This document shows, piece by piece, positions 6,307 to 59,553 of a stretch of 64,000 nt of DNA. The position numbers and the translations under genes were made by a program. Numbering within the stretch: position 1 is the stretch's first letter; every line of letters starts with the position of its first letter. Under the pieces are notes generated by a model. That model did no database searches. It saw only the letters and a program-made list of their open reading frames with translations, and was not told where the DNA came from. This DNA comes from Proteromonas lacertae (Eukaryota): the NCBI GenBank assembly GCA_002245135.1, contig NGBS01000871.1, positions 186,001 through 250,000 on the forward strand, read 5' to 3'.

Positions 6307-7611
6307 ATGGAGATTATAATAGTTTTATTATTGGTTTCTATGATAATGTATATCATCTTATCAAAAATAAACAAGAGTAAGTCATACTTTTTTAATAGCC
6401 AGTTAGCAACTAGAAGTTTAAAAAGTGATAAAATAAACAGCTGGCTTATAGATGGGTTTAATGAGTTGAAAATCAGTCATTATTCAAAACTAAAGACAGC
6501 TATGTTGTTGATTTGTTATAACAGAGATAAGTATTTAGAAAGAACATTAAAATCTGTTTTGAAACTATACAATTTGCCAAATCCTCCATCAAAGCCAGAT
6601 TTAGTCATTAGTCAAGATGGAAATGATAAAGAAGTAAGTAAAGTAATAAAAGATTTTATAAAAGAAAATAAAGAGAAAATAAAAACAATTCATATAAATC
6701 ATGAAGTAGCAAAAGCCAGAGATGGATATAAAAGACTGGCAATTCATTATGGTTGGGCATTAAAACAGATATTTGATGAATTGAATTATAAACAAGTAAT
6801 AGTAATAGAAGATGATTTAGAATTTGCTGATGATTTTCTTGAATTCTTTTATGGTTTATCTGATATAATGAGTGAAGATAAATCGTATAATATAATTATG
6901 TAATATTTTTTTAATAGAATAATGTGTCTTAGTGCTTGGAATGATAATGGTTTTCCACAGAATGTAGAAAATCCAAGTATATAATATATATAATATATTA
7001 ATATAATAATAATAATAGAAGCATTATATAGAACTGATTTTTTCCCTGGTTTAGGATGGTTAATGAGAAAAGACTTTTGGGATGAAATAAGAAATAAATG
7101 GCCAAAAGCATATTGGGATGATTGTATTAGAGATAATAAAATTCGTAAGAATAGAGTATGTATATATCCTGAAGTTAGTAGAAGTTATACATTTGGTTCA
7201 AAAGGAACAAGCTTTGGAAGTAGAGCTAATTCACCAAATTCATTTTTTACAAAATATTTATTAAATATTAAATTGAATGATAAAAGTGTGAAATGGAGTG
7301 AGATTAATTATAAACCATTACTTAAGAATAATTATGATATGGTAATAAAAGAAGTTGTAAAAGAAAGTAAAGAAATAAATATTGAAGACTTATCCAGTAT
7401 ATTAGAAAAAAAGAGTGATAATGTTGAAGTTTATAAAATATATTATGAAGATATTAGAGATTACAAAAGGAAGTTAAGAAAAATGAAAATGTTTGACAGT
7501 TTGAATAATGGTGGTGGTATTGGAAGAGGAAGTTATCATAGTCTATCAATAAAGAGAAATAACAACAAATTAATACTATTAGTGCCAAAACACTCAACTT
7601 TTTATGTTTAG
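6307..7611 (+). CDS. MGAT1: Alpha-1,3-mannosyl-glycoprotein beta-1,2-N-acetylglucosaminyltransferase I (GnT-I, GT13), copy 1
   Basis: N-terminal TM anchor; motifs VISQDG, HYGWAL, IEDDLE, CLSAWNDNG, YRTDFFPGLGW, WDD, PEVSRSYTFG; two short introns. Confidence 0.92.
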
Positions 7612-7771
7612 GTAGATCTAGGTATTTTATAGTCAAATAGATGTATTGAGTATCATAATAATATTTTGATTTAATGATTTTTTTTTTTTAAGTTTCTTGG
7701 TCAAGCTAAGTTTGAATGTAATTGACACGTCATTTTTTAATATTTTTTGTTTTTCAATTTAATAGTAAGAA

Positions 7772-24622: not shown

Positions 24623-26002
24623 TTAACTGTCATTAAGAGCTGCAACACCTGGTAATAATTTACCTTCCATAACTTCTAAGCTAGCACCTCCTCCAGTTGA
24701 AACATGGCTGATCTTTCCAGATAATCCAGTCTTTTTCAAAGCAGATACTGAATCACCTCCTCCAACGATTGAAATAGCACCATTTTCAGTACATTTAGCT
24801 ACAGTTTGTGCAATTGATAATGTACCTTTAGCGAATGGAGCATATTCAAATACACCCATTGGTCCATTCCATACAATAGTTTTAGCTTCACCTAATTTCT
24901 TAGCGAATAATTCTTCAGTCTTTGGACCTATATCTAAACCTAATTTACCAGCTGGCATATGATCCCAAGCACATACTTCATGAGCTGATTTAGCACTCAT
25001 TTCATCTGCACATACTACATCTACTGGTAATACTAATTCTACACCTTTAGCTTTAGCATCCTTTACTAATTGTTGTGTGAATTCCATTTGTGCTGGTTCT
25101 ACTAAACTCTTACCTACTTCTTTACCCATTGCTTTGTAGAAGGTGAACATCATAGCACCACCGATCAATAATTTATTAGCTTTTTGAATCAATGATTTCA
25201 TTACTGGAATCTTTGTTGATACTTTTGCACCACCAACTACTACAACTAATGGACGTTTTGGATCATCAATAGCACCATATAAGAAGGCTAATTCTTTTTC
25301 CATTAACATACCAGCAGCAGCTCTCTTGCATAACTTAGCAACACCAGCTGTTGATGCATGAGCTCTATGAGCTGTACCAAAGGCATCATTGACGTAGTAT
25401 GTTGCTCCTGTTGATTCTACTAATGCTTTAGCGAAATCTGGCTTGTTCTTTGTCTCACCTGGGTTGAATCTTACATTTTCTAATAACATTAAATCTCCGT
25501 CTTTTAATTGATCAGCTTGTTTCTTTACAACTGGGCCTGTGACTTCGGGTACATAGTAGACTTTTTTACCGAATAATTCTGATAATCTGTTAGCTACTGG
25601 GTCTAATCTTAATTTATCATCAACCTTCTTTGGTTTGCCTAAATGAGTGCAGACTACTACACGAGCTCCAGCTTCTGATAATAATTTAAGAGTTGGAATG
25701 GCAGCTCTGATTCTTGTATCATCGGTAATCTTTCTTGATCCATCCTTTGCAAGTGGTACATTCAAATCACATCTTACAAATACAGTTTGTCCCTAATTTA
25801 TTGATAATAAACAATGTATAATATACTTTTAAGTTTTCTGATGCAATGAGTTTTTTTACTGTTAATTTATTAGCTGGATGATTAGCTGGTAATGCAGAGA
25901 ATGATCTCAAGGTCATTTTTGCATATAAACCACTTTTTAATACAGAAGATGATGTCTTAAATACGGCCTATAGTATAAATGCAATTAAATCCATACTTGC
26001 AT
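24623..26002 (-). CDS. PGK: Phosphoglycerate kinase with N-terminal mitochondrial/MRO-type presequence
   Basis: VFVRCDLNVP, DDTRIRAA, THLGKP, LLENVRF, NDAFGTAHRAH, WNGPMGVFE, GGGDS, HVSTGGGASLE. Two 5' introns; leader MQAVFKTSSSVLKSGLYAKMTLRSFS. Confidence 0.97.
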
Positions 26003-27208
<1,206 letters not shown>

Positions 27209-30663: not shown

Positions 30664-30795
30664 TTTTCGGTTTAATATTTTCAAGCTTTCAAGCTTGTTT
30701 TTGTTGTAAGAAAAAAAAACAAGCAAACATCATTAAATCAAAATATTATTATGATACTCAATACATCTATTTGACTATAAAATACCTAGATCTAC

Positions 30796-32089
30796 CTAAA
30801 CATAAAAAGTTGAGTGTTTTGGCACTAATAGTATTAATTTGTTGTTATTTCTCTTTATTGATAGACTATGATAACTTCCTCTTCCAATACCACCACCATT
30901 ATTCAAACTGTCAAACATTTTCATTTTCCTTAACTTCCTTTTGTAATCTCTAATATCTTCATAATATATTTTATAAACTTCAACATTATCACTCTTTTTT
31001 TCTAATATACTGGATAAGTCTTCAATATTTATTTCTTTACTTTCTTTTACAACTTCTTTTATTACCATATCATAATTATTCTTAAGTAATGGTTTATAAT
31101 TAATCTCACTCCATTTTCACACTTTTATCATTCAATTTAATATTTAATAAATATTTAGTATAAAATGAATTTGGTGAATTAGCTCTACTTCCAAAGCTTG
31201 TTCCTTTTGAACCAAATGTATAACTTCTACTAACTTCAGGATATATACATACTCTATTCTTACGAATTTTATTATCTCTTAATACCAATCATCCCAATGA
31301 TGCTTTTGGCCATTTATTTCTTATTTCATCCCAAAAGTCTTTTCTCATTAACCATCCTAAACCAGGGAAAAAATCAGTTCTATATAATGCTTCTATTATT
31401 ATTATTATATTAATATATTATATATATTATATACTTGGATTTTCTACATTCTGTGGAAAACCATTATCATTCCAAGCACTAAGACACATTATTCTATTAA
31501 AAAAATATTACATAATTATATTATACGATTTATCTTCACTCATTATATCAGATAAACCATAAAAGAATTCAAGAAAATCATCAGCAAATTCTAAATCATC
31601 TTCTATTACTATTACTTGTTTATAATTCAATTCATCAAATATCTGTTTTAATGCCCAACCATAATGAATTGCTAGTCTTTTATATCCATCTCTGGCTTTT
31701 GCTACTTCATGATTTATATGAATTGTTTTTATTTTCTCTTTATTTTCTTTTATAAAATCTTTTATTACTTTACTTACTTCTTTATCATTTCCATCTTGAC
31801 TAATGACTAAATCTGGCTTTGATGGAGGATTTGGCAAATTGCATAGTTTCAAAACAGATTTTAATGTTCTTTCTAAATACTTATCTCTGTTATAACAAAT
31901 CAACAACATAGCTGTCTTTAGTTTTGAATAATGACTGATTTTCAACTCATTAAACCCATCTATAAGCCAGCTGTTTACATTATTGCCTTTGTATTTTGAC
32001 ATTTTTATTAAATGTGATTTATTTTTACAGAATTTCGATAATGCAATATACACTACACAAAAAGTTAATAAAAGCAAAGTAAACAACAT
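30796..32089 (-). pseudogene. MGAT1: GnT-I (GT13) copy 2, inverted duplicate with four single-base insertions
   Basis: Near-identical to 6435-7680, including introns and 3' flank. Extra bases near 31115, 31280, 31286 and 31299 break the frame. N-terminal TM/stem has diverged. Confidence 0.75.
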
Positions 32090-37414: not shown

Positions 37415-39235
37415 ATGTATAGAAGAGCTACATTATCAGTTGTTCCAGGTAATGCATGCAGAGAATCTATGGATTATTCTTCAGGGAAGAGTCTAGGAAG
37501 AAAGTCAATGGCTGCTCCATCTAGACCTAGTTCTGGGTATTTTGTATTTTATTATTACTTAGGAGAACTAGTTGTTCTACAACATCAAGAAAATTACAAT
37601 CAAATATAAAATTATACGAATCTAAGAAATATCAAGATGCTGCAGTTGCTAAAGTACTTCAATTTCTAACTGATCGTGCATATGATCAACAAATATCATC
37701 ATCGATATTATCAAGACCGACTGGTGCTCAATACATAAATATACTTCGATTTGTATTAAAGCAACACGATCCCAATTTAATAATAACAGAAAAGAGTAAT
37801 AAAGATATTATTGGTATTCTTAAAAGTTTAAAGTATTTTTCAATATTGTATAATATAATTTAGTTGTCCATGTGCTGTATCACAAACCACATTAAGTTCA
37901 ATTGGTAGTCCTCATACATGGCCAACATTATTGTACATATTAAAATGGTTGGTAGAATTAATTGAATATATACAAAGCACAGAAGGGAATAAATCAAATG
38001 AATGGGATTACCAGTATTATGAATTTTCAGGTGAATCATATAACTACTTTTTAATGGCAAATGACGATAAAGTATTAGAATTAGAAGATGAAATGAAAAA
38101 GAAGTTAGATGAAATAATAAATCAAGCAAATAGTGAATTAGAAGCAGCAATTATTGAAAAACAAGAGTTACAAGATAGATTAAACACATTATCTCGATCA
38201 GGTATGAAGATTCAAGAATTAAAGAAGAGAAATCATGAATTATATGAAGACAAAGCAAAAATGGAAGAATATATTGAACAATATTACAAAAAAATAGATG
38301 AGAAACAAAAAGATTTGAATTTATTAGAAAATGAGGAAAAACAGTTAAATGATAAAAAAGAGGAATTACTTAAAGAAAAAAAGAAATTGGAAGAGCAAAT
38401 AAAATCACAAAAATTCTCACCTCAAGATATACTAAATATGAGAAAAGAAAAGACAATGTTAACTGAAAGTTATAACCAAGCAATAAATGATCAAAATACA
38501 CTAAAAGCTACAAGATTTGAACATAAATCAAAAATGAATGAATATATAAACAAAACGAAAACATTAATTAGAGAATATAATGATTTATGTGCTGAATTGC
38601 TGTTAATACCCACAACTGCTGCTAATGCTAATGGAAATGATTTAAGTGTAGAATTTAGAGATGATTTGTTTGAATCTGGTATTCTTTTTACAAATGACAC
38701 AAAAATGATAAAAACATACTTAAAGCAGTTTAAACAGTATCTTGTAAATGAGACTGAAGAATGTAACAATGAAGTAATGAAAAAAGATGATATTCTAGAT
38801 AAAATAAAGAAGAATCAAAAAACATTGAAAGTCTGTGTTGAACAAATAGAGCAGCAATATCAAAAACTATTAGAAAATAGCGAAAAAGAAGAATCTATGT
38901 TGAAATCAATCTTAGATGGATTGGAACATCAAATAAAAGAAACATTGGACGAAATAGAAGAGTATGAGAATAAAGCAGCAAATTTTGATCAAGAAGTAGC
39001 TAATGATTATGAAACTGTGAGTAAGTTGAGAGAGACTATTGAAATACAGAAAGTACAGAACGAGAATGAGTTGAGAGAATTTTCTAATATAGTTCTACAG
39101 AATTTAGAGATATTATCTAGCCATAAAGAACATATACAAGTATATTATACCTGTTTCACTTTAATTTCTCAATAGGATCAATTAAAATTAGTCGAGACTA
39201 CTTTAGATGAAAAATTGGGAGGCATCAGTCCTTAA
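37415..39235 (+). CDS. NDC80: Kinetochore protein NDC80/HEC1
   Basis: Basic Ser/Arg tail, CH domain (KVLQFLTD..PTG..FVLKQHDPN..SIGSPHTWPTLLYILKWLVEL), long coiled coil with loop; 3 introns. Confidence 0.9.
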
Positions 39236-39496
39236 TAATGTTATATATAATAATACTTATTTTTAATAATTGAATGTTGCTTTTGTTCAAAACAACAAAA
39301 AATTTGAAATATTCATCAAGCCAAACTTATAATTATTGACGTTTTAAAATTTAAGTTGTTAGTGTTTTGTACTTTAGAAAAATTGAATAATCATTTATAT
39401 TTAATTCTTTTAATATAATACAATTATTTATAAATCTTTGTAAAGTAATTGGATAATACAAATAAAATTACAGTTCGTCCTTCAAGTACAATAATA

Positions 39497-42400
39497 ATGG
39501 TATATTTATACATTGTTAATTTTAAATGTATTAGCAAGGGACAGCTAATGATGAGACTAACAGAGATTCTTTAAATAAGAAAGCAGGATCTGGAACAAAT
39601 ACTCATAATAGTGTAAATCCTGTTATAATTCCTCAATCTCGTCCATTGACTGCTAATGCGAATGATCCTAAACGAAAAAGAGAGTCGAGAAGAATGACTA
39701 ATGTATTGGATAAAGTATGCATAGACTAATATATCTAATTCATCTAGCTTGGCTCAGGATGTCTAATAGCAGAAAGATTTAAAATTGTTGAAAAAATAGG
39801 AAATGGTTCATTTGGAGAGAGTATATTTATTTTCTAATTATCTATTAAATAGTCGTAAAAGCAATAGATACAACAAACAATAACGAAGTAGCAATCAAAT
39901 TTGAAAATGCAGCAAATAACCATCCACAATTACATATGGAGATGAAAATATATGATGAATTAAAAGGTAATGTCGGTGTACCAGTAGTATATTACACTGG
40001 AGTACAATACAATTACAATATATTAGTAATGGAATTATTAGGAAAAAATTTAGATTCAATATTTGAAGAACGTAAGAAAAAATTTAACTTAAAAACAGTT
40101 TTACTATTATTCGATCAAATGTTAGATAGAATAGAACTGCTACATGAGCATGGTTTCGTCTACAGAGATATCAAACCAGAGAACTTTATGTTTGGAAATA
40201 ATGATAAAAAGGACATACTATACTTAATAGATTTTGGATTATCCAAGCGATATAGAAGCCAATTAACTAGACAACATATCCCATTCAGAGAAGAATCAAC
40301 ATTAACAGGAACAGCAAGATATTGTAGTATAAATGCACATTCAGGTGAACAATCAAGAAGAGATGATTTAGAAGCAATTGGTTATTTATTAGTATATTTT
40401 ATGAAGGGATGTTTACCATGGCAAGGTTTACCAAGAAACCATCAAATACCACAAATGAAATTAATAGAACAAAAGAAAAGATCAATTCAATTAGAAGATT
40501 TGTGTAGAGATTTACCTGATCCATTTAGACAGTATATTGAATATTGTAGAAACTTGGACTTTAAGAGTAAACCTGATTATAGATATTTGAAGAAATTATT
40601 CCACAAATTGGCTGATTCTCAGAATATTGTATATGATAATATATATGATTGGACACCTACTGCTGAAGTTCAAACTAAGACTCAAGTTTATAAATCAAAA
40701 GCAACTACTAAAGATAATAAACCAAAAACAGCTACAGATACTTGTATATATATATTTTTTAATATTTATTTATGAATAGTGTTGGAAGAAATAGATGAAT
40801 ATCGTGATAAATGTCCTTTGTGCTTATGGAGAACATCAGAAGATGGTGAAAGTAATAATGAACATTATTTTGCATTTCAGGAAGGTATTATTGGTAGTGA
40901 TATTATTCATTGTGAAATATATATTGATAATATTGACACACATCATGCAAGATTGTCATGGGATCAAGCTTGTGGTGGTTATTGTATATGTGATTGTAGT
41001 AAACCTGAATATGGAACTTACTTATTATTATCTGCAGAAAGAAGATGTAGAAAGTATATATATTATTATAATATTTCACTTTTTTTTCTTGTTATTATCA
41101 TTACTTTTCCTCCTTTTCATTATTCTTTTTTATTTTATTCTTATCATAGAACTTTTGAATTAAGAAGAGGTGATAAATTCTACATCAGTGAAGCCAGGAT
41201 TGAAGTAGAAATATTACACATTGAATACCATGCAATCTGTGGAGATGAGAATAATAGAAATACATACAAACCATCCAATCCATCACTCAATAAAGTAGAT
41301 TCAGAGAAATCGGAATTTAGATATAACAGTCTCAATAACAACACAACCAATGATAGTCCCAATAATAATAATAACAATAATAACAATAATAACAATAATA
41401 ATAACAATTTTGATTTACCTAAGCCAAAGAAGAAAAAAGGCCATATTCAATTCAATACAATTACTTATAATGATAATGGAGAAACAGAGAAACTATGTGA
41501 TTCATTTGAAGGTGATGATGCTATTAAATATCAAATAAAGGCAAGTATTTCTGTGAAAATACCTATATATAATGATGATGAAGAAAATGAAGAGATTATT
41601 CAATCATCATCTATGTATTTGAACCAAGCTACACAATTTGAAACAAAGTATATTTTATTTTTTATATTATTTTTATTATTAGAAATTATGAATTAACACA
41701 TGACACTACATTTGGCAGTCTAAAATCAAACGATGTAATTCTTCCAGAAATATGCAGTGGAGTTCATTGCAAAGTTTCAATACAAAATGACAAAATCATA
41801 TTAGAAGATTTAAGTGTAGGAGATCCAACAGGAACAAGGATATTAGTATCAAGACCAGTGGAATTATTTGAAAGAGATATTATAATATTAGGAGACTTAG
41901 AATTAGGTGTAATGCCAATTTCAGATTGTCCAATTTATAGTGCACAATGGATTTCTTGTGCTGTAAGAATTATTCCACTGAGAAAGTCAAAGAGAACTCC
42001 ATTATTGAGTAAAGAAGAAGCAATGTCACAGACTAAAGTATTTCCTATACCAATGGAAGGAGAGATTTTGATTGGAAGAGGAACAGATTGTCAGATTATA
42101 TGTGATGATGTATATATATAATAATTATTATTATTATTATCTATATTTACTATAGTATAAAGTAGCAGAGAAACATGCTTGCATGTATTATGAACCAATA
42201 GAACAGAAATATTATATTGAAAGTTTGGTTATGAGTAGAGCTCAAATTACACAGTTATTATTAGGAAGATCTTCCTCAGCATCTAAAGCGCCTTATAAAT
42301 TGAAAGAATGTATATAAATATATTTTTATATATTTATATTATTATATAGCTGATATATTTTGTGTCGGTTCATCACAAATCCAAATAATCGAAATGAAAG

Positions 42401-43874
42401 TAGAATCAATAGAAGAAATAGAAGAAAGAGAAAGAATAGCTTTTGAAAGAGTTCAATCTTTATGGAAAGATGTTTCATTACTTTCACTATTACCAAAAGA
42501 AGTATTTACAAAAGTAGCTGATGCATTTAAACCAATCAGATTCACCAAAGGTTCAACTATTATACAACAAGGTGAAGAATCAGATACATTTTATATCATC
42601 AAGCAAGGAAATGCTGATGTGTTTTTCTACAGAAGAGGCAATAAAATCAGGTTAAAGACATGTGGTCCTAATAGTTACATTGGAGAATTAGATTTGATTA
42701 ATAATTGCAATTATACTGCCACAGTTATTGCTACTTCTGATGTGGTTGATTGTTTGTCATTAGATCAAGCCACTTTTGTCAATTTTGTTGGTCCTTATAT
42801 TGGTGCAATAGGTGAAGAAGCTAGGAAAAGAGATGTTCAAACAATAATCAATGTCTTGGAGAAATTTCCATTTTTTAATTTATTACCAACAGATGTTCAT
42901 GTTGCACTATCCAATCATTTGAAGAATAAATCATTCCATGATGGAGAAGTGATAATAAAAGAAGGAGATACTGAAAATATTGTATTTTATATCATTCTAA
43001 ATGGAGAAGTGACAATCACAAAAAATGAAGATCTATCCTCTGTTATTACAATATTGAAAAATGGAGATTATTTTGGCGAGCTTGCTTGTCTATCCAAAGG
43101 TCCAAGATCTGCTAATGTAATCGCACATGGTTTAGTAGAAACTTTATATTTAGATTTACCTCATTTTGAAGAAATATTATCCAGTTATTTCATTAAATCA
43201 ACCAGTGCTAGAAGTATTAGTGAAGCTTCATCTGGATTAGGAATTCCAAAGACTGATAGGTTTAAATCAAGACATTTGAACGAAAGCAAACCTTTAGCAC
43301 CTGTATCACCACAAAGTGCACCAAGGACTAGAAAACCAGGTGCTTCTAATAGAGCATTACAGTTGTATATTATTATATTATTATTATTTAATTAATTAGA
43401 ATTGGTGATCCTGAATTGAATAGTTTAACTGAAGAAGAATTAGATTTAGGTGAAGATGATGATACAATATTATATGATAGAACAACAGCAGCTCAAAAAC
43501 CACATTATATTGTATTAAAAGTACTGTCTGGACCATTGAGAAGGGAGTTATATATAATAGAAAGTGAATTAATTACAATTGGAAGAGGTGTTTGTACTTT
43601 GTCAATTAATGATTTAAGTTTAAGCCCAATTCATTGTACAATTGAATATAGAGAAGGAGGTTATTGGTTGTCTGATGCTAATAGTGAATCTGGTACATAT
43701 TTACAGTTGGAAGTTGGATTAGCATTTCCTGTTCAAGTGGGTGATGTTTTTAGGATTGGTAATACTGAGATTAATATATTAGGTAAGACAAAGACTCAGT
43801 CTACACCTACGGATAAGCCTGGAGTGACTACACAAACAGCTGATGAGAATGAACATTGTTGTGTAATATCTTAA
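39497..43874 (+). CDS. Casein kinase 1 fused to three FHA, two cyclic-nucleotide-binding and a fourth FHA domain, ending in CCVIS (CaaX)
   Basis: IGNGSFGE, VAIKFE, LVMELLG, RDIKPENF, IDFGLSK, LTGTARYCSINAH, EQSRRDDLE, LPWQGL. In-frame splice 40744-40779 into the FHA region. cNMP motifs GELDL and GELACL..PRSANV. Confidence 0.85.
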
Positions 43875-44813: not shown

Positions 44814-45760
44814 AATGAGAATAATAATAAAAGGCTTGAATTTCGATTTGATATATTTTCACAAATAAACTTAAAATATGGAATCTAGTGAAATAGAATT
44901 TGAAATCCGAGAAATAGGAAAAGGTAGGCATAGTGTTGTAATGTTAGTTGAAAGGGGTGGTGTTAAAATGGCAAGAAAAGAAATAGATGTGTCAAAACTT
45001 CCTCCTGATGAAGTTAAATCGATAGATGAGGAAATAAAATTATTAAGTGTATTGAGAGATAGAAGTGTGCTAATCTACAAAGAATATAGACATGATAATA
45101 TGAACAACAAATATTACATATACACCGAATATCTTGAAAATGGAGATCTATTTCATTTGATCCAAAAGCAAGTAGCTAAAAGAGAATATTTTGATGAAAA
45201 GGTATAATTATTGTATTATTTGATAATAATAGACTATAAGAGTATATGTTGAAGATATAGCAAATGCATTAAAGTATATTCATAGTAAAGGAATAATTCA
45301 CAGAGATTTAAAACCTGCAAACATCTTTATAGGAAATCATAACAAATTAATAATTGGAGATTTTGGAATAGCAGTAAAAAGTGGTGATAAAGAAGTAAAA
45401 TTAATCGGAACAGCAGGATATATTGCTCCAGAGTTGTGGATTAGTAATCCTCCTAGCTATACAGCATCAACTGATATATTTTCCTTTGGTTGTATTTTAT
45501 ATGAGATATATACATTTCAAATGGCTTATAATGGTGAATCAAATACAAAAATTAGAGATTTAATATTAAATCCAAATTATCAAATACAATTTAATAGAAA
45601 TCCACAAATCTTTAATGTAGAATATCTAATAACAAGAATGTTAGAAAGAAATCCAATGAATCGTATAAGTTTAGATGAAATATTTACTACAATTGAACGA
45701 TGGAAAAATGGAATAAAAATATCAATGAATAGTTCATTTGATAATATAGAAAGTTTAGGT
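44814..45760. repeat. Inverted-repeat arm K1 (kinase + promoter), pairs with 53243-54184
   Basis: Near-identity by eye including the intron and the upstream AATGAGAATAATAATAAAAGGCTTGAATTTCGATTTGA; first ~25 codons diverged. Confidence 0.9.
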
Positions 45761-46201
45761 GAAAGAATAGTTAATTCACCTATAAAACATCAACCTATAC
45801 AACAACAAAAACTTCCACAGCAACCTCCTTTACCAGTATTTCCAGTTCTACCAATTCAACAACCAGTTCAGTCCAATAAATTCATTAATATAAGTAAGAA
45901 TCAACCAAATCAGTTAAATCAAGTAATGATGACTATTTATCCACCTCCACAATCACATTCTCCACCTCTTCCACCACCATCACAACAACAACAACCATTA
46001 TCACCTTCAATTTCACCTTCAATTTCACCAACATCACTCTCAGCTCAATTATCTCCTACACAACAAAAACCAATCAAAGTAAATAAATATATAAATATAA
46101 GCAATAATTTGAATAATAAACAAATGCAATATCCTTTATCTCAACCACCAATATCACAACTAAATTTCATTCAATTAAATAATGTTTATCCATTATCTTA
46201 A
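44878..46201 (+). CDS. NEK-like Ser/Thr kinase with short Pro/Gln-rich tail (kinase-only paralog)
   Basis: IGKGRHS, MARKEI, EEIKLL, EYLENGDL, HRDLKPANI, GDFG, GTAGYIAPE, TDIFSFGCILYE; one intron. Confidence 0.85.
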
Positions 46202-46287
46202 AACTTAATTATTTATAATTTTTGTGTTGTTGGGATTGAAATTTCTCATAATAACAATATTTAGGTTTGATTATGATTTGATCAAAT

Positions 46288-47417
46288 ATGAATAAAAATT
46301 CTTTTTATCTCCCTGTTGAAGGATTTTTTTCTTCTCATTCACTTGATAATATCAAAAAATCACCAGTGTCTTTAATATTTGATAGTAATTCCATCTATAA
46401 AATAGAAAATGACAGTAAAAGTTGTAGTTACAAGCAAATATGTATAAAAGTAGACACATATACTTATTAGACAAATGTGAGTCGAAAATGATGTATGTAA
46501 TAGATTTTATAAATGATTCTGATTGTGAAATATTAGTACAATCGATTAATAACAAGAATAACATGGAATTATCTTTGTTTAAATATAAAGAGGAAGGGGA
46601 AGAATTACAGTTATTATCTTCCATTGTTATTGATTTTGAACCAACAGAAACTATACTTGATTCTTACCTATTCCATGATATTTCAAGTCCAATATTGGTA
46701 ATAACATCAATAGATTGTAGATGTCACTATTATACTTTCAAAAATCATAAAATAGAAAAATACACACCAAAACATTCATTTTATAATATAATGAATTTAA
46801 CATCTTCATACATAGTAAAAATGCAAATATATAAAGAGAATAGCAACAATAAAATATGGTTAATGCTTGGATATGAAGATGGATCTTTTATTGTTATTGA
46901 TACAGATGAGTATTATTGAGTTTTATATTGTATAATAGAAATATTCAATATAATTGCATTTTTCCTGGTACAGTTTCTTCAATATTAACATTTCCTAATA
47001 CATTAACCTGTAATTATAATGATCATTCTTTTATATTGATTATTGGTACAATATATGGTGAAATATATGAATGTAAATTGAATAATGAATTGGTATATGA
47101 TTTTGTAATTTTATGTGATAGAAAATAATAGAATATGATTGTTTATACAGTAAGAAGAGTTGTATTCTTTCATTATGCTATTACAAGGTATATAATGCAT
47201 ATGTATATTTTAATAGAATAGAATATATATTGGAACTTTTTCAGAAAAACTGATCATTTTGGATTATAACAATGAAGAAAGTGATAATGAAAAGAAAGTG
47301 AAGAAAATTGATTCATTTGTGTATTCATATCCAATTATGAGTTTAAAAACAGTAGAGAATGAAATGTGTATTTATATTGCTACATTAAGAGAATTGTACA
47401 TCTTAAAACTAAAATAA
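46288..47417 (+). CDS. Beta-propeller protein, possibly kaptin (KPTN)-like
   Basis: Beta-strand-rich spliced ORF: DFEP..ILVITSIDCRCHYY, LMLGYEDG, GTVSSI, YIGTFSEKLII, YPIMSL..IATLRELYIL. Family call is from pattern only. Confidence 0.4.
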
Positions 47418-47431
47418 ATAATGAATTTTAT

Positions 47432-47896
47432 TTAATCTGTTTTTATTTTTGGATAGCATACATATCCTTCATAATACTGAGAGTTAATTTCTATACTTTT
47501 CTTTGTATTTGTATTATCTGATGTTTTATCATCATATAACTCGCACTCTGAATGATTAATCACTTTATAATCATTATGGTTAGGTTTATACGACTAAATA
47601 ATGTAAAATTAATAATATACTTCAATTATTTTGCAATAACTAATAAACTTGTTTAATTTCTTTTCTAATTCATTATTTGAAGATTTTCTAATATGAGATA
47701 ATTCATACAAGTGGTTTATCTAGAAAATGATAATTTCTACATATATTTACTTCTAATTTAGTTACTGCATTTTTATTCGTTTCAATAGATTTTCCTTGGA
47801 TATCATTAATAGATAAAACAGGCTTCTTAACAATCTAATCGATAATATTGCATATTATACTTGTTTTAATTCAAAATGCGAAATATACCGTCTCAT
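47432..47896 (-). CDS. Glu-tRNA(Gln) amidotransferase subunit C (GatC)-like, 3 introns
   Basis: Spliced: VTKLEINHLYELSHI..LEKKLNKFISYCKIIE..LYDD..GYVCYPK, a GatC-like pattern. Confidence 0.5.
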
Positions 47897-48019
47897 TATT
47901 GATTTTAATGATATATTTAAGGTAATTAGCTTGATTGTTTTTTCAAAAAACATTAAAATAAAAATGAAGCTTGAATAAAAGCTTGTAAATCTATTTTGAT
48001 TTCTTTTAAAAAACAAAAA

Positions 48020-51000
48020 GAAATACAAATAATTAAATGGTTTTAAAGATTGGATTTAACTTTTCCAGAAATGTTTTTAAATCTGGTTTTATAACAATCT
48101 TTGATGTATTTTTCATTAATTCTTCAATTTTTCTTTTTAAATCTCCAGTAAATTCTTTCATTTTTGGAATTGTATAAAAATCTTTAATACAATCACATAC
48201 TTTCTCTAAAATTATCCAATAATTTTCATTTTCAATGAAATTGATTTTACTATTACATAATATAATTATCAAAATATACAATTCTTTTGTATTTATATTA
48301 TCAACACTAAACCCCTTAATTTCTATTCCAATTGCCTTTAATGATTTTTGAATTGTTTCATTTACTCTTCCTAAACATTCTTTATTATTCTTTATTTCAT
48401 TGATTTCTGAATCTGTGAAGAATGGTTTTGTTGGAATAATATTCTATTCATTATAAAAACTAAATTACATACAATATTCTTAACAATTGAAGAACAAGAA
48501 GAATTAATTCTCAATTTCTTAAATTCAACTCTACCAAAGTAATAATCTTTTATTTGTTGTTTAAAGTAATCTTCTCCTGATAAAGATTTCTTAGCTGGTT
48601 GAAAACTATTAATTAGATTATTCTTCAGTTTTTTCAATTGATTCTTTATTTCATTTTCTGGAAATATACAACATTCTGTTATTAATTCCAATATATGCAG
48701 TGATTGTCCATCTCTAATAATATATTAAATTACAATATTTATATATACAAATCATCTATATTTGGATGATGTAAACCACTAATATCAAAACGAATATTAT
48801 ATTCAGATAAGAACTTGTTTGATAAATCTAAAATTTTGTTAACTTTTTCTTTATCCAGTTTAAATACTATATATTAATAGAAATTAAATCATATATACAT
48901 TCACTATCATCTTTTGTGAATTTTGGACTTTTTTGATCAATTTTGGGAAATATAATATTATAATGTTCTTCTTTAAAATCAATTGTGTGTAAAACTACAT
49001 TTTTCATCTCTATTAAATCACTTATTTTATAATAATTTCTATCTATTTTCAAAGGAGTTATATCATCATAAAACTGAAAAACTATCTAAACGTCAAATAT
49101 TATATTAATTAATACATTAATTTCATTTTTTTCCTTACTAATTGGTGATAATGGAGGTTTTTTCTTATAATTCTTTTGAAATTCTAATACAGAATTTGGA
49201 ATATCTAAAATGTCATCTAACTTTATTAATTGAGAAAAATCTTTTGCTTTAGTCATTATTTCTTTAATTCTTTCTTCATTTCCTTTGTATTTTGATTCAT
49301 CTAATAATTCTATTTTTTTGTTTAAATCATCATATATTAATCCATATTTCTGTACAAATTTATAAAGAAAATTATTGTATCTTTCGATTGTTCTTGATTT
49401 ATTCTTTTTCATTTCTTTAATATCATCTTCTGTTAGTTTTGGATTATTCTGTTTCTTTGTTGGAAATATCCACTAATGTATTATATAATTAGGAAATATA
49501 CTGGAATATATTTTTCTATATTCAATTTGTTAAAATCATATTCACTCATTTTACATATATCTTCAAAATTATATCCATTTACTCTTTTATACCATAAAAT
49601 AAATTCTTTCTATTTCAATAATACTATTGATTATATACAATTTTAACATTAGGTATAACTGGAGAAACACTTCTATTCAGTGGTGGGGGATTATCAGTTG
49701 ATTCACCATTTATAAAACTGATAATTAAATCTGGAATATCAATCAATGAATAAAATTCTACAATTTCAAAATAACTCTTCATTCTTTTCATTATTCCTTC
49801 TATCTCATTTTTATATACTTCTATTTTACTTCTATCTGTTGATATAACTCTTCTGTTTATCTCATCATATTTCAATCCATATTTGGATAAGAATTTGTTT
49901 ATTATAATTTTGTATTTCTTTTCTAATTCACTCTTTTTTCCTTTTATTTGATATACATCTACTACAGTAATTTTACTTTCTTCAGGAAATAAATACTATA
50001 AAATATAAGTGGTAATAAACTTATACAGGAATAAATTTATCTATTGAAAAACTGTTGAAGTTTGATTGAGTCATATTCACTATCTCATCAAATGTTTTTC
50101 CACAAACAGGTGAAGAAAGTAATAAGAATGATTTCTATTAATAAATAAATTGAAAAATACAATAGGATTTGAAGATGGAGGTGGTGGAGGATATATTTCT
50201 CCTTCCTTTTCATTTATAAAACGTAGAACAGCTGTAGGTATTTTCAATAATTCAATCTGATCTATATCATTTAAAGATATTTTTATTCTTCCCATTAATT
50301 GTTTTATTTTTTCTTCATTTCCTTTGTATTTTGATTCAACTATTATTTTAATTATTTTACTCTTTTCATCATATTTCAATCCATATTTGGATATTAATTT
50401 CTTAAGAAAATTGCCGTATGATTTTTCTACTCTTTTAGTAAATTCTTTCATTTTTCTAATATCATCTTCTGTTAGTTTTGGATTATTCTGTTGCTTTGTT
50501 GGAAATATCCACTAATATATTATATAATTAGGAAATATACTGGAATATATTCATCCATATAGAATTCATTAAATTCATATTGATTCATATTATATATATT
50601 TTCAAAACTGTATTGATTTACTTTTCTGTCAAATAGAATGAAATCTTTCTATTTGATTATTAATATTTTAAAAAATACAATTGCTGTAATGTTTAAATTT
50701 CTGTGATTAATTATCTTTTCTATTAAAGAATAGTATAAATCATCTATTCCACATATTACCATTAAACTATTCTTTATTCTATTTAATACTTTCAATGATT
50801 CATCTCTAACTCTCCAATAACTATTTTAATCATATTAATAGAAATATACTCATAATTATCATTAATTCTAAAATCATTTCCATTTTCAACAACATCATAA
50901 CCATATTTTTCTAATATTAAATGAATTATTTCTTTATTGTTATATTTAAATAAATCATCATTTTGAAAGATCTTTCTATCATTCTCTGTAAATGAAGGAT

Positions 51001-52282
51001 TATCTTGATCAACTATTGGTAATAACCACTAAAATATAATAATAATTATTATTTATACATTCAATTCATTCAATGGATACCATTTTCGAAGGTCTTCATG
51101 TTTCATATTGACATAATCTTTAAACCAATAGCCAGTTTCAGATCTAATCTCTCCTCTATAAAATTTTATTACCTATTTCAATAAATTATAATATATAATA
51201 CATCTGATTCTACATGCATTGTTCCTTTAATTCGATCTTGAATTATTTTATTGATCAAATTGATTTTATCATTTTCTTTGAATGTATCTTTTATGCTTTG
51301 TCTTAAATGCTCTAATACTCTCTTTGTTTCTTCTTTTCCTTTCCATATACTATAATTATTTGGATGTTGCTGAAATGAATTATCTTCAAATTCAACTACA
51401 TATCCATTCTTGATTAATACAACTCTCATTAAGTCATAATAGTATATTTTTATCATTTCATTTTCTACAAATTCTTTTCTTTCTTCTTCTGTAAATTTGG
51501 GTGGATGGATTTGATTTAAGTGAGGAAAGAAAAACTATAATCATTATCAATATAAAATATACATATAAATCATCATGATTAAAATAATTTTGAGATGTTT
51601 TTCCATCTAAATTCATATAATAATCCAATTTGTGTTTATTATATTCTAATTCTACACAATAGAACTTTATTATCTATTCATTATTATATAGAATGAAATA
51701 CGTTTGATTTAATTGCTTTATTCTCTTCTTCTTTATGTTGCTTTGATTCTATTCTTCCATTCTTTACTTTTTCTTTATTCTTGTCTTTTGATTTGTTGTT
51801 TTTATCTTGATTATTTCTTTCTTCAATTATTTGACAATCTATTATTAGTATATCAATATTTTTATTATTACTTTCTAGTAATTCGTTCAATCTATCTAAT
51901 AACTTTGAATCATTAAATGTATCTTTCATACTCTTTATCACTATCTTTAATAAATCAATACATTTTGATTTTGACATATTCTCACTCTTTCTATTATTAC
52001 AATATTACAAATATATATATACAAACATATATTTATTAAAGAATCTATCAACAAATTGTAGTTTTCTTCTATTATATCATTTTCTACAAATTCTTTTTTG
52101 ATTTCTTCATTGAATAATGGTGATAATTGGTTTAAATGAGGAAATAAATACTATTTACATTTAAATATATCATTATATACACTACTATATTTCATATATT
52201 CTTCAATACTTAGATTTTGTTGATAATCATAAACATTTTTTCCATTTATATCTTCTTCAAATATATAGAATTGAATTATCTA
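48020..52282. repeat. Inverted-repeat arm R1 (OGFr-like array), pairs with 56352-59490
   Basis: Long stretches identical in reverse complement, including introns (e.g. ORFs 51178/57150, 48033/59232). Confidence 0.9.
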
Positions 52283-54124
52283 TAAACAATTAATGAATAA
52301 ATAACAAATACTTTTGATTTTTCACATTCTACAGTCTTTTCTACATTATTTTCTCTATTATCAACTTCTTTCATTATGTCTTTTTCATTTTTTTCTTTAG
52401 GTTTTACCTTTTCTTCTTTTTTTACTTTCTTTCTTTCATCATCATTCTTCTTTTTTTTATCTACTTCTTCATCTGAAGAAGAAGATGATGATGATAATTT
52501 TCTTTTCTTTTTATGATGATGTTTTCTCTTCTTCTTTTCTTCTTCATCACTACTTTCATCATCATTTTCATCATTATTACATTGAGGAGGTGGTGGAGGT
52601 GGAGGTGGTGGATATTGTTGTGGTGGTTGCAGTGGTAGTGGTGGTTGTAATGCCATTAATGGTTGATTACGATTGTTATTAATCTGCTGAGGAGGAGGTG
52701 GAGGTGGAACAAATTGTATTTGGTTATTATTCATATAAAAAGGATAATTATTTGAATATGGTGGTGGAGGTGGAGGTGGAATATTTGGATTATAATAAGC
52801 AGTTTGCATTATTTGATTTGGTGGTGGAGGTGTTGATAAATTTCCACTAAGATATTGATGATTATTCAGATTGTTTAGAATATTCATAAATTTATTTGTT
52901 TGATTTTGATTAGGTAAACTTGACTTTCTATTACTAATTATACTACTAGGTAATGATCTTCCCAATGGGTTATCTTCTACTACTTGAGGAGGGTTAATAG
53001 CAGGTGAAGGAGTAATGGATCTTTGATGAGCTTGTGAATTTGGTCTAACTGGCTGTTGAAACTGTTGTTGTGGTGGTGGTGGTTGTATTTGTGGAAATGG
53101 TTGTTGTGGTAGAAGTGGTTGTGGTTGTAGTGGTTGTTGTTGCATTTGTAGATAAGGTTGTGGTTGTTGTAGGTTTTGTTGTAATGGTTGTTGTTGCATT
53201 TGTAGATAAGGTTGTGGTTGAGGTCTATTTACAACTGTTACACCTAAATTTTCTATATTATCAAATGAACTATTCATTGATATTTTTATTCCATTTTTCC
53301 ATCGTTCAATTGTAGTAAATATTTCATCTAAACTTATGCGATTCATTGGATTTCTTTCTAACATTCTTGTTATTAGATATTCTACATTAAAGATTTGTGG
53401 ATTTCTATTAAATTGTATTTGATAATTTGGATTTAATATTAAATCTCTAATTTTTGTATTTGATTCACCATTATAAGCCATTTGAAATGTATATATTTCA
53501 TATAAAATACAACCAAAGGAAAATATATCAGTTGATGCTGTATAGCTAGGAGGATTACTAATCCACAACTCTGGAGCAATATATCCTGCTGTTCCGATTA
53601 ATTTTACTTCTTTATCACCACTTTTTACTGCTATTCCAAAATCTCCAATTATTAATTCGTTATGATTTCCTATAAAGATGTTTGCAGGTTTTAAATCTCT
53701 GTGAATTATTCCTTTACTATGAATATACTTTAATGCATTTGCTATATCTTCAACATATACTCTTATAGTCTATTATTATCAAATAATACAATAATTATAC
53801 CTTTTCATCAAAATATTCTTTTGTAGCTGCTCGATTTTGGATTTTATGAAATAGATCTCCATTTTCAAGATATTCGGTGTATATGTAATATTTGTTGTTC
53901 ATATTATCATGTCTATTTTCTTTGTATATCAAAACACTTCTATCTCTCAATACACTTAATAATTTTATTTCTTCATCTATCGATTTAACTTCATCAGGAG
54001 GAAGTTTTGACACATCTATTTCTTTTCTTGCCATTTTAACACCACCCCTATCAATTAATTTCACTACACTATATCCACCTTTTCCAATTGTTTTCATCTC
54101 TATTTCATTAGTGTTATTATTCAT
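48033..54124 (-). CDS. NEK-like kinase + Pro/Gln linker + eight tandem degenerate OGFr_N-like domains (~20 introns, ~1800 aa)
   Basis: Kinase exon 2 splices in phase 0 (intron 52280-52311) into repeated units with pattern [IV]xxFY..G../W[LI]FP..P.[LF]TE.D..F..L.KYG..RI..SL. No stop found along the spliced path. Confidence 0.75.
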
Positions 54125-54190
54125 TATGTAATTTTATGTGCAAAGTTCAAATCGAAATTCAAGCCTTTTATTATTATTCTCATTCTTTCA

Positions 54191-55005
54191 ATGAGTACTT
54201 CTGTGCAAACAACTAAAGTAGATTTTATAAACTTACTACAAAAAATGGAATCCTTTTCAACAGAAGAATTATCGAATATATGTGTCTCTCTGTATATATC
54301 TAAATTGAGGTATATTTTATTGAATTATATTGAATTAGTGAATTGTGGAAATTATTGAATGAAAATAACCAATATTTGAGCAAGCCACTCTCTTTTGAAA
54401 CATTAAGATCTTACGAAAAGAGATATTCAATCTTAATAAGGAATTTACATAACCCAAAATCATCAAAGAATCCAATTATAAATTCAAAATCCAAATCTTC
54501 AGATGTTCCCAACACAAAATCAAAAGAATTAGACTTAAAGAAACAGTTATTTGGTGTATGAATATATATAATTCAATACTATAAGTATTATTCATAGAAT
54601 AAGTATAAAAAAGAACTCCTAATTGATGAAGAGTATTAATAATCACATTATTCTCTATTAGGTTAGAAAATGATATAAATAAGCATGTATCATTTCAAAA
54701 TGACATAAAAAATGAAATATTATCAATGAGTGAACAGTTACAAATCCAAGGAAATGATGTAAATAGTATAATTAAATCAGATATGTCAATTTTAAAGCCT
54801 TCTCAACAATTAATGGAAGAAAGTATAAATATTTATGGAATTATTATATCATATAGATTCATATAATTTATCAAAAACTCAATTAAAGTTGGAAGAAGTG
54901 ACTCATAAAGGAAGATGTATGTGTTGCAATTATGTCTCCACTACTGTGATGATTATGATGATTTTTATGTTTATGGTGATGTTAATGAAAACATTACCAA
55001 AATAA
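54191..55005 (+). CDS. USE1: USE1-like ER Qc-SNARE (4 introns)
   Basis: QNDIKNEILSMSEQLQ..IIKSDMSIL..NLSKTQLKLEE SNARE helix, then Cys-rich CMCC and C-terminal TM ending MKTLPK. Confidence 0.65.
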
Positions 55006-55159
55006 TTAGTTTATTTATTGTTTTCTGTTGTTATGTAAATACTTTAATTAGTTCTAACCATTTTTTGTTATTCTTATTTGTCTAGCCGTTTAAATTATAT
55101 GAATATTTATAATAGGCTCGAATTGCTGTTTGAATTTTACATAGAAATTATTTAATATT

Positions 55160-58100
55160 ATGTTTAATAGCAATAATAATAATCAAGTATATACATCTTA
55201 TGGAACACTACAACAAAATGGTCCTAATACTTCTCCATATCAACCTCGTCAAGTTAATAGATATATTTACAGTGCAAATAGAGTAACACAAAATCAAATT
55301 CCATCTTTGATACCTCATTCATATCCGTATCAGCAATCTCAAACTCAACAGAAACAACAAATTAACATTCAACAACAACAACCACCTATTCAACAACAAC
55401 CACCTATTCAACAACATTCAACAACAACAACTTATTCAACAACAACATCCTATTCAACAACAACAACATCCTATTCAACAACAACAACATCCTATTCAAC
55501 AACAACAACTTATTCAACAACAACAACTTATTCAACAACAACAACATCCTATTCAACAACAACAACATCCTATTCAACAACAACAACTTATTCAACAACA
55601 ACCACCTATTCAACAACATCATTCTATTCAACAACAACAACTTATTCAACAACAACAACATCCTATTCAACAACAACAACATCCTATTCAACAACAACAA
55701 CATCCTATTCAACAACAACAACTTATTCAACAACAACAACTTATTCAACAACAACAACATCCTATTCAACAACAACAACATCCTATTCAACAACAACAAC
55801 ATCCTATTCAACAACAACAACAACTTATTCAACAACAACAACTTATTCAACAACAACAACTTATTCAACAACAACAACATCCTATTCAACAACAACAACA
55901 TCCTATTCAACAACAACAACATCCTATTCAACAACAACTTATTCAACAACAACATCCTATTCAATTACTACCTACAATTGAAGAAGAAGAATCATTACCA
56001 GCAATAGAAGATCAGTCTATTTTGGAAGATAGAGATCATATTCAAGAACAAATAATGCAGATTATAAAAGAACTACCAATACACCAGTTACATGATATAT
56101 TTCAACTTTTAGAAATTGTACAGAATCAAAAACAACAAATACTTCCTCTTCTTCATCACCTCACGATGATGCTAATGAAAGTGATGATGAAATTAGTAAT
56201 AAAGAAAAAGAAGACAAAATAGAAGAAAATTCAGATATGGAAAGGAAAGTCGATGAAATAGATGATGATGAAAAGAAAAAAAGGAAAAAAGAAGATGAGA
56301 TGAATAAAGTAGAAGAATCTATTGTATTTGCTTTTTTTGTCATTATTGTTTTATAGATAATTCAATTCTATATATTTGAAGAAGATATAAATGGAAAGAA
56401 TGTTTATGATTATCAACAAAATCTAAGTATTGAAGAATATATGAAATATAGTAGTGTATATAATGATATATTTAAATATAAATAGTATTTATTTCCTCAT
56501 TTAAACCAATTATCACCATTATTCAATGAAGAAATCAAAAAAGAATTTGTAGAAAATGATATAATAGAAGAAAACTACAATTTGTTGATAGATTCTTTAA
56601 TAAATATATGTTTGTATATATATATATATATAATTATAATAGAAAGAGTGAGAATATGTCAAAATCAAAATGTATTGATTTATTAAAGATAGTGATAAAG
56701 AGTATGAAAGATACATTTAATGATTCAAAGTTATTAGATAGATTGAACGAATTACTAGAAAGTAAAATTATTGATATAATAATAATAGATTGCCATCAAG
56801 ATAAAAACAACAAATCAAAAGAAATAAATAAATAAAAAGTAAAGAATGGAAGAATAGAATCAAAGCAACATAAAGAAGAAGAGAATAAAGCAATTAAATC
56901 AAACGTATTTCATTCTATATAATAATGAATAGATAATAAAGTTCTATTGTGTAGAATTAGAATATAATAAACACAAATTGGATTATTATATGAATTTAGA
57001 TGGAAAAACATCTCAAAATTATTTTAATCATGATGATTTATATGTATATTTTATATTGATAATGATTCTAGTTTTTCTTTCCTCACTTAAATCAAATCCA
57101 TCCACCCAAATTTACAGAAGATGAAAGAAAAGAATTTGTAGAAAATGAAATGATAAAAATATACTATTATGACTTAATGAGAGTTGTATTAATCAAGAAT
57201 GGATATGTAGTTGAATTTGAAGATAATACGTTTCAGCAACATCCTAATAATTATAGTAAATGGAAAGGAAAAGAAGAAACAAAGAGAGTATTACAGCATT
57301 TAAGACAAAGCATAAAAGATACATTCAAAGAAAATGATAAAATCAATTTGATAAATAAAATAATTCAAGATCGAATTAAAGGAACAATGCATGTAGAATC
57401 AGATGTATTATATATTATAATTTATAGAAATAGGTAATAAAATTCTACAGAGGAGAAATAAAATGTAAATACATTGAATATAATATAAATTCTTATGTCA
57501 ATATGAAACATGTAGAACTTAGAGGATGGCATCCATTGAATGAAATTAATGTATAAAGAATTATTATTATTACATTTTAGTGGTTATTACCAATAGTTGA
57601 TCAAGATAATCCTTCATTTACAGAAGATGATAGAATGATCTTTCAAAATGATGATTTATTTAAATATAACAATAAAGATATAATTTATTTAATATTAGAA
57701 AAATATGGTTATGATGTTGTTGAAAATGGAAATAATTTTAGAATTAATGATAATTATGAGTATATTTCTATTAATATGATTAAAATAGTTATTGGAGAAG
57801 TAGAGATGAATCATTGACAGTATTTGAAAGAATAAAGAATAGTTTAATGGTAATATGTGGAATAGATGATTTATACTATTCTTTAATAGAAAAGATAATT
57901 AATCACAGAAATTTAAACATTACAGCAATTGTATTTTTTAAAATATTAATAATCAAATAGAAAGATTTCATTCTATTTGACAGAAAAGTAAATCAATACA
58001 GTTTTGAAAATATATATAATATGAATCAATATGAATTTAATGAATTCTATATGGATGAATATATTCCAGTATATTTCCTAATTATATAATATATTAGTGG

Positions 58101-59477
58101 ATATTTCCAACAAAGCAACAGAATAATCCAAAACTAACAGAAGATGATATTAGAAAAATGAAAGAATTTACTAAAAGAGTAGAAAAATCATACGGCAATT
58201 TTCTTAAGAAATTAATATCCAAATATGGATTGAAATATGATGAAAAGAGTAAAATAATTAAAATAATAGTTGAATCAAAATACAAAGGAAATGATTAAAT
58301 GAAATATTTGAAATACCATTTTCTGTATTAGAATTTCAAAAGAATTATAAGAAAAAACCTCCATCATCACCAATTAGTAAGGAAAAAAATGAAATTAATG
58401 TATTAATTAATATAATATTTGATGTTTAGATAGTTTTTCAGTTTTACGATAATGTAACTCCTTTGAAAATAGATAGAAATTATTATAAAATAAGTGATTT
58501 AATAGAGATGAAAAATGAAGTTTTTTACAAACTCAATTTTAAAGTAGAACATTATAATATCATATTTCCCAAAATTGATCAAAAAAGTCCAAAATTTACC
58601 AAAGATGATAGTGAATGTATATATGATTTAATTTCTATTAAAATATAGTATTTAAACTGGATAAAGAAAAAGTTAACAGGGTGTTAGATTTATCAAACAA
58701 GTTCTTATCTGAATATGATATTCATTTTGATGCTTGTGGAAATTTAAATTATCCAGAGTTATATAAGATGTATATCAATTTTAGTTTATTATGTATTTAG
58801 AGATAATCATGCTTTACCATTAATAGCAATGATTACAGAATGTTGTACATTTCCACAAAATGAAATGAAAGAAGAATTGAGAGAAATGAAAGATAATCTT
58901 GATGATGAATTTAAATCAGTTAAACATACAATACAAGATGAATATTACTTTAAACAGCAAATAAAGGATTATTACTTTGGTAGAATAGAATTTAAGAAAT
59001 TGAGAATTAGTTTTTCATGCGATTCAATTATTGAGAATATTGTATGTAATTTTCTTGTATAATGAATAGAATATTATTCCAACAAAACCATTCTTCACAG
59101 ATTCAGAAATCAATGAAATAAAGAATAATAAAGAATGTTTAGGAAGAGTAAATGAAACAATTCAAAAATCATTAAAAGCTATTGGAATAGAAATTAAGGG
59201 GTTTAGTGTTGATAATATAAATACAAAAGAATTGTATATTTTGATAATTATATTATGTAATAGTAAAATCAATTTCATTGAAAAACAACAAAATTGGATA
59301 ATTTTAGAGAAAGTATGTGATTGCATTAAAGATTTTTATACAATTCCAAAAATGAAAGAATTTACTGGAAGTTTAAAAAGAAAAATTGAAGAATTAAAAA
59401 GTAAAAATGAAATTGTTATAAAACCAGATTTAAAAACATTTCTGGAAAAGTTAAATCCAATCTTTAAAACCATTTAA
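55160..59477 (+). pseudogene. Kinase-less paralog: poly-Gln repeat N-terminus + OGFr-like array, disrupted
   Basis: Frameshifts near 55415 and 56130. In-frame TAA at 56833 where the paralog has GAA. Out-of-frame ~1.1-kb deletion at ~58295 fusing repeat 4 to repeat 6. Confidence 0.7.
55370..55962 (+). repeat. Coding minisatellite (CAA)3-5 + CATCCTATT/CTTATT, encoding [13 protein letters not shown] units
   Basis: About 30 units of 15-21 bp visible directly. Confidence 0.9.
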
Positions 59478-59553
59478 TTATTTGTATTTTCATTTTTAAT
59501 AAACAATAACTCAGATACAAACATAAAACAAAAACAAATTAAAATAAATCATC

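Follow-up and report, generated by a model that had tools for sequence, protein, structure and literature searches.

In our study, a 64,000-nucleotide stretch of the genome of Proteromonas lacertae (contig NGBS01000871.1, positions 186,001–250,000 of the forward strand; the window, in whose coordinates all positions are given) was found to contain a gene in which a casein kinase 1 (CK1) is joined to four FHA domains, two cyclic-nucleotide-binding (CNB) domains and a C-terminal CCaaX motif. The gene was present on the forward strand from nucleotide 39497 to 43874, and splicing of its ten exons in silico gave a protein of 1329 amino acids with the order CK1-FHA1-FHA2-FHA3-CNB-A-CNB-B-FHA4-CCaaX. 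CK1s were originally defined as cyclic-nucleotide-independent kinases. We consider it close to an even chance that the product is a CK1 tethered by a lipid anchor, in which a cAMP/cGMP site of low selectivity in CNB-B adjusts how the kinase reaches its substrates. The part outside the kinase appears, from sequence comparison, to be an older conserved scaffold to which the CK1 was added here, because relatives in Cantina marsupialis contained the same order and anchor and no kinase.

The reading frame started with the ATG at 39497, ended with the TAA at 43872–43874, and was open throughout once nine GT-AG introns were removed (introns 1–5: 39500–39534, 39715–39747, 39821–39852, 40744–40779 and 41054–41149; introns 6–9: 41648–41682, 42110–42155, 42310–42349 and 43365–43399). 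The length of the introns ranged between 32 and 46 nucleotides, except for intron 5 with 96 nucleotides. The gene was AT-rich with short introns, in a window of 26.3% GC; in GC content and intron size it is near to Proteromonas (27% GC) and tortoise Blastocystis (21–23%) and unlike the human Blastocystis subtypes, which have 39–55% GC and 30-nucleotide introns (PMC12129017). The positions of introns 2 and 3 were set by CK1 alignment, the relative P0242 crossed introns 5, 6 and 7, and the Cantina proteins crossed intron 8 and also contained the FHA4 and CC end lying beyond intron 9. Two exon-like fragments were found as well, the match to P0241 stopping at intron 7 and that to P0247 beginning at intron 5. 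Intron 4 (40744–40779), at the junction of kinase and scaffold, was 36 nucleotides long, contained 8% GC against 29% and 33% in its flanks, and places a stop in frame if kept. In a leave-one-out splice-site model it scored 12.5, most other introns being similar (range 4.3–15.4), and only 1 of 293 exonic decoys outscored it. No in-frame ATG was found in exon 5, and all upstream ATGs able to splice into exon 5 were in the kinase frame. One gene is favoured because intron 4 is typical and nothing in the FHA part would serve as a separate start, so that the fusion, as a gene model taken from the genomic reading frame, is very probably transcribed as one mRNA. A preliminary description of this DNA had proposed a single gene whose exons splice in frame in the order given above, of which the order was borne out by the 1329-residue frame and the single gene is supported.

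Intron 5 contained no in-frame stop, and its retention would add 32 hydrophobic residues to FHA1 with the frame intact; its splicing is backed by the homologs. The motif TGTTTGTT was tried as a 3′-end signal for locating the end of the transcript and was not used, since its 10 copies in the window compare with 6.2 ± 2.4 expected and 10 of 100 shuffles reached that count. One copy was present 33 nucleotides past the stop codon; the gene itself contained none in coding orientation.

The CK1 kinase domain (39778–40655, amino acids 72–353), assigned from CK1 sequence matches and alignment, was 49–53% identical to CK1s along its whole length, with an E-value of 2e-89 to CK1 delta. The Gly loop, the VAIK Lys, the catalytic Asp and the DFG were all intact and the CK1 SIN motif was present in place of APE; CK1 delta/epsilon and Hrr25, with about 50% kinase identity, contain the same catalytic residues and the same SIN motif. 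A one-residue deletion was found just after the SIN motif, and 46 of 152 CK1-family-conserved columns were altered, including the alphaG region at amino acids 280–287. In PKA, the alphaG helix touches CNB-A of the regulatory subunit, and the departure of alphaG from near-invariant CK1 residues may be set beside that contact as a hint only. The kinase was followed by a Thr-rich linker (40656–40811, amino acids 353–392) containing 9 Thr among 40 residues and broken by intron 4. CK1 is known to write docking sites for FHA domains, as in the Hhp1/2-Sid4-Dma1 system (PMC6080649).

When 1.84 billion representatives were searched with the FHA2-FHA3 exon, 13 matches came back, 8 of them family-like and 5 generic FHA proteins. 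Two family members were transcriptome proteins of Cantina marsupialis, an opalozoan stramenopile, held in EukProt with no annotation: P0245 (EP01029_P019487, 1567 amino acids) and P0261/P0251 (EP01029_P025694/5), where P0261, with 1169 amino acids, is the longer isoform of P0251. Both P0245 (E 6e-40) and P0261 (E 2e-56; 26% identity) were collinear with the window protein from FHA1 through the C-terminus, with three FHA domains, two CNB domains, a linker, a fourth FHA domain and a CC-aaX end. The basic motif between FHA2 and FHA3 and the helix leading into CNB-A were also in common, whereas the Cantina proteins differed from the window protein in the missing kinase, in a longer linker between CNB-B and FHA4, in GN at FHA4, and in their ligand cassettes, of which P0261 contained two canonical ones and P0245 none. 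Since the cassettes of P0261 are canonical, the family is plausibly able to bind cyclic nucleotide. The 'complete ORF' (open reading frame) labels of P0245 and P0251 are suggestive, not proof, of a true start.

No second fusion was obtained from the homolog searches, which were word-seeded and length-limited, so that its absence is a weak negative. In a profile search with FHA2-3, 7994 candidates were scored and 2 were returned, namely the Cantina proteins described above. Family members made up 0 of 190 candidates in one metagenome scan; in a second scan 19 of 225 candidates were picked up, all of them loci of 51–71% GC with single FHA-like matches and no linked CK1 or CNB, and none was a member. 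No NCBI Blastocystis protein was present among the 13 representative matches, names being covered for 11 of them, and either loss or divergence fits this result. The architecture had been put forward as unrecognised, and it stays so in that no second CK1-FHA-CNB fusion was found in these homolog searches and no description of the architecture or of the Cantina scaffold in the full-text literature searched, a body of text that mostly does not cover subscription papers.

The four FHA domains were detected with a hidden Markov model built from relatives only, the window sequences being excluded, and they scored 32.5, 44.4, 51.0 and 71.2 bits, whereas the highest of 200 background shuffles reached 3.2. 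Pfam on single exons picked up just FHA2 and FHA4, and FHA ranked top in the Atlas for the FHA1 exon (0.94). The phospho-Thr-binding motifs of FHA domains are GR, SxxH and NG (PMC3162421). FHA1 (40812–41219, split by intron 5) was degenerate, with Arg and Ser both gone. FHA2 (41610–41923, split by intron 6) retained SxxH and had lost the Arg and the Asn, and it was followed at 41978–41998 by the basic motif R[RK]S[KS]R, present in every family row covering it. In FHA3 (42029–42399, split by introns 7 and 8), all 4 aligned members of the family retained GR and had Ala for the Ser. Thus the pair of GR and SxxH was complete only in FHA4 (43506–43784), as the preliminary description had stated, although the third motif was incomplete there, the NG position being Ser-Gly; FHA4 of Cantina likewise contained no Asn. 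The relative P0242, which looks GC-rich, kept GR and SxxH in FHA1, unlike the window protein and Cantina, and the FHA domain competent for phospho-Thr appears from these residues to differ among family members.

The two CNB domains were supported by Pfam (E 8e-38) and by an alignment-based structure model with a predicted local distance difference test score (pLDDT) of 92; a single-sequence prediction reached a pLDDT of only 35. A helix at 42400–42468, of near-equal length in both Cantina proteins, linked FHA3 straight to CNB-A (42469–42804; cassette 42682–42720), which was followed by CNB-B (42832–43188; cassette 43075–43113). A canonical site contains Gly-Glu, a small residue at position 4 and an Arg at position 11 of the 13-residue cassette. 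CNB-B contained all of these (Gly-Glu, Ala1079 and Arg1086), followed by Ser1087. CNB-A kept the cassette length and the Gly-Glu, and Asp948 was present at position 4 in place of Ala and Tyr955 at position 11 in place of Arg. Both the canonical GE..PRSANV cassette of CNB-B and the Tyr at the phosphate-binding Arg position of CNB-A had been pointed out earlier, and both were recovered by alignment. In a tree of 100 of 357 CNB domains, too weak to be relied on, CNB-B paired with CNB-B of Cantina P0261 (0.77) and CNB-A was not placed with the family.

The same preliminary description had called the kinase cGMP-regulated, which is unsupported as stated. A Ser after the cassette Arg can contact guanine N2, the change from Thr to Ser costs 4-fold in PKG, and PKG I CNB-A, which has the Thr, prefers cGMP just two-fold (PMC3080414). 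Sites selective for cGMP use a beta5 Arg, such as R473 of PfPKG (PMC4412288). CNB-B contained the Ser and lacked this Arg, Thr1067 being present at the beta5 position, where the two intact Cantina sites contained Gly or Ala. Among 292 background domains, Arg or Lys at beta5 was found in 55 of 80 with Thr after the cassette Arg, in 23 of 50 with Ser, and in 6 of 118 with Ala. The cGMP-selective reading is weak because Ser1087 makes a weaker contact than Thr and the beta5 Arg is absent.

In the nucleoside sites of the trypanosome regulatory subunit (PKAR), a Glu at the Ala202 position is the main determinant and Arg209 is lost (PMC10959531). CNB-A shared both changes, with an acid (Asp948) at the Ala202 position and the Arg209 position replaced (Tyr955), and mismatched that cassette in Thr956, where V319/V443 are found, and in Tyr955, which is bulkier than Thr318/Asn442. 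An acidic residue at the Ala202 position was found in 0 of 296 background cassettes, a mostly PKG set from which 69 of 365 domains had been removed because they were gapped or did not begin with GE and which contained only 8 Arg-less cassettes. The Asp/Tyr state is derived, site A of Cantina P0261 being canonical. CNB-A thus resembles, in a single sequence, a nucleoside-binding cassette more than a site that is simply dead, a likeness that the preliminary description had passed over; this is a lead, in which CNB-A might at most work like such a site and not be a member of that group.

By the rules for a CaaX box with an adjacent Cys, the CCVIS end (43857–43871) is a predicted signal for farnesylation at Cys1326 and palmitoylation at Cys1325. 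All three full-length sequences, the window protein and two Cantina proteins, ended in CC-aaX. The product is therefore likely to be lipid-anchored to membrane, and the membrane anchor proposed earlier gains from its conservation in both full-length relatives as a predicted lipidation site. Palmitoyl anchoring is known for some CK1s, and membrane attachment by a C-terminal Cys is likewise known for some (PMC6080649); Yck, Cki and CK1 gamma are palmitoylated. The anchor here is a CaaX box on the scaffold.

In the mechanism that we propose, the CCaaX end would be farnesylated and palmitoylated, and the kinase would be held at the membrane. Either cAMP or cGMP would bind CNB-B, probably with little selectivity between them; the CNB pair would move, the helix from CNB-A would pass the shift into FHA3 and the FHA cluster, and the rearranged scaffold would alter the choice of substrates within reach of the tethered kinase. 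A phospho-Thr of the kinase's own Thr-rich linker or of a substrate may be bound by FHA4. The fusion would fix a former partnership of kinase and scaffold in one chain, and gain of the kinase here or its loss in Cantina are both possible. That the cassette of CNB-B is canonical amid heavy divergence, with 26% identity to P0261, suggests selection on ligand binding.

Several observations weigh against this mechanism. Neither a pseudosubstrate nor a contact between kinase and CNB domains is in evidence. Both cassettes of P0245 were degenerate, which makes ligand binding dispensable in part of the family. Binding of phospho-Thr by FHA4 is, on the residues present, not family-wide, with the NG Asn absent and GN in Cantina. 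The junction of kinase and FHA at intron 4 was spanned by no homolog and was the sole intron without a homology check; FHA and CNB were both absent from the domain listings of the 120 top-ranking among 2175 long CK1 matches, and FHA from those of the 120 top-ranking among 163 long CNB matches. In addition, all eight Blastocystis genomes are listed with zero cyclase, zero phosphodiesterase and zero PKG genes (section 8 and Table S5 of PMC12129017), and such a loss, if it applied here, would leave no endogenous ligand. According to the same paper, Proteromonas retains cyclases, and the Blastocystis genomes retain 2–7 CNB genes and 5–8 FHA genes.

The retention of CNB genes in genomes with zero cyclases also favours an explanation in which the CNB domains are ligand-free spacers and the fusion adds to a constitutive, membrane-tethered CK1 only an anchor and docking surfaces. 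The lost Arg of CNB-A, the two degenerate sites of P0245 and the three FHA domains without the phospho-Thr pair all fit it; every canonical position of CNB-B being intact despite divergence elsewhere speaks against it, and we regard it as unlikely. If instead CNB-B were a PKG-like, cGMP-selective switch on CK1, as the earlier model had it, Ser1087 could reach guanine N2 at the modest cost known from PKG. The top sequence matches of the CNB pair were PKGs, and modelled CNB-B was nearer to PKG I CNB-B (Z 19.0–20.4, root-mean-square deviation 1.2–2.1, 117–124 aligned residues) than to PKA-R domains (Z 18.0–18.8). However, the model alignment was PKG-rich and the sequence search was limited to proteins of more than 590 amino acids, which excludes PKA-R, so that both rankings were biased towards PKG. 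With the beta5 Arg missing, and with a two-fold preference at best in PKG I CNB-A even where Thr is present, this switch seems quite improbable.

A joint gating of CK1 by two purine inputs, a nucleoside (inosine, guanosine or adenosine) at CNB-A and a cyclic nucleotide at CNB-B, we judge similarly improbable. It would account for the acid and the Arg loss in CNB-A, for the rarity of that acid in the background, for Lys936 at the beta5 position that contacts guanine, for the intact cassette length and Gly-Glu, and for the derived state relative to P0261. Against this, the residues are Asp and not Glu, a bulky Tyr and not Thr or Asn, and Thr and not Val; the background consisted mostly of PKGs under selection, with some of its 8 Arg-less cassettes misaligned; and the case rests with one sequence that showed no special closeness to the trypanosome structures (6flo at rank 27). 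A related proposal, to which we give a low probability, has a gut-dwelling opalinate that makes no cyclic nucleotides and has converted an old cAMP/cGMP scaffold into a membrane-anchored sensor of two purines, with CNB-A as a convergent nucleoside site and CNB-B reading cyclic nucleotides of the host or bacteria, both wired to CK1. Very unlikely, in our view, are two separate genes, a dominant short isoform in which CK1 stops in intron 4, or an assembly chimera. Every named scaffold relative is without a kinase, retention of intron 4 yields a complete CK1 of 392 amino acids, and intron 4 alone lacks the homology check. Yet the scaffold had neither its own start nor a spacer, neighbouring genes here being about 160–260 nucleotides apart, and the tail gained with the retained intron was AT-rich read-through as at other ORF ends.

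The modules themselves are all known, and fusions of cyclic-nucleotide-binding domains with kinases are common in stramenopiles; it is the combination of CK1 on this scaffold that is apparently undescribed. CK1s of P. infestans, like other CK1s, carry no additional domains (PMC3019232), whereas the window protein bears about 950 amino acids of folded accessory domains. The oomycete fusions of cyclic-nucleotide-binding domains with a kinase, and in some cases PP2C, include 8 P. infestans kinases of the AGC and CAMK groups; none of those listed is a CK1, and FHA goes without mention (PMC3019232). PKG and PKA-R have the tandem CNB fold in common with the window protein, and PKG also joins kinase and CNB domains in one chain. 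Compared with PKG, the kinase here is a CK1 and not AGC, it is N-terminal and not C-terminal to the CNB domains with three FHA domains between, and the intact site is without the beta5 Arg. The nucleoside-activated PKAR of trypanosomatids (6flo, 6hyi; PMC10959531) have in common with CNB-A of the window protein the acid at the Ala202 position and no Arg at the Arg209 position, and they differ in having Glu, Thr or Asn, and Val against Asp, Tyr and Thr; only one of the two sites is changed in the window protein. Since the host proteins are unrelated, any likeness of CNB-A to them would be convergent. Bacterial proteins with CNB and FHA domains in one chain were found in Atlas clusters (0.87–0.90), but these are of 245–300 amino acids. 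CK1 and cyclic nucleotides go without mention in the main text of the Blastocystis ST1 paper, as far as that text was covered (PMC5608401).

Elsewhere in the window, an Ndc80 kinetochore gene (37500–39237) was found on the same strand, ending 260 nucleotides upstream of the CK1 fusion. The genes of PGK (reverse strand) and GAPDH (forward strand) were present head to head at 24623–27208, both with presequence-like N-terminal extensions, and are likely to encode co-regulated mitochondrial enzymes of payoff-phase glycolysis; mitochondrial glycolysis in stramenopiles is a precedent for such presequences (PMC7729029). The region 44814–59497 contained nested inverted duplications, with the pairs 44814–45764/53238–54184 (protein kinase, 94%), 48015–49220/58295–59497 (89%) and 50315–52323/56312–58294 (95%). 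A GNT-I glycosyltransferase gene was present as inverted copies at 6434–7689 and 30714–31977, which were 99% alike with different N-termini. The gene at 15957–17741 on the reverse strand encoded a long charged coiled-coil protein that gave no match in Pfam or the PDB and which has, as an impression, the look of a ciliary trichoplein-like protein. Ciliary Pfam families gave no match above cutoff in 96 scanned ORF pieces, and one match to BBS2_Mid was below it.

A natural CK1 set in a CNB scaffold would, if true, be a new route to second-messenger control of CK1, and the Cantina proteins point to an undescribed family of FHA-CNB membrane adaptors in opalozoan stramenopiles. Nucleoside-binding CNB domains beyond the trypanosomatids have been raised as a possibility (section 15 of PMC10959531), and CNB-A of the window protein is a testable case; if the two-input explanation were true, it would be the first such domain outside trypanosomatids and the protein the first ligand-gated CK1. 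The window protein also gives a handle on what the CNB proteins of the cyclase-less Blastocystis bind.

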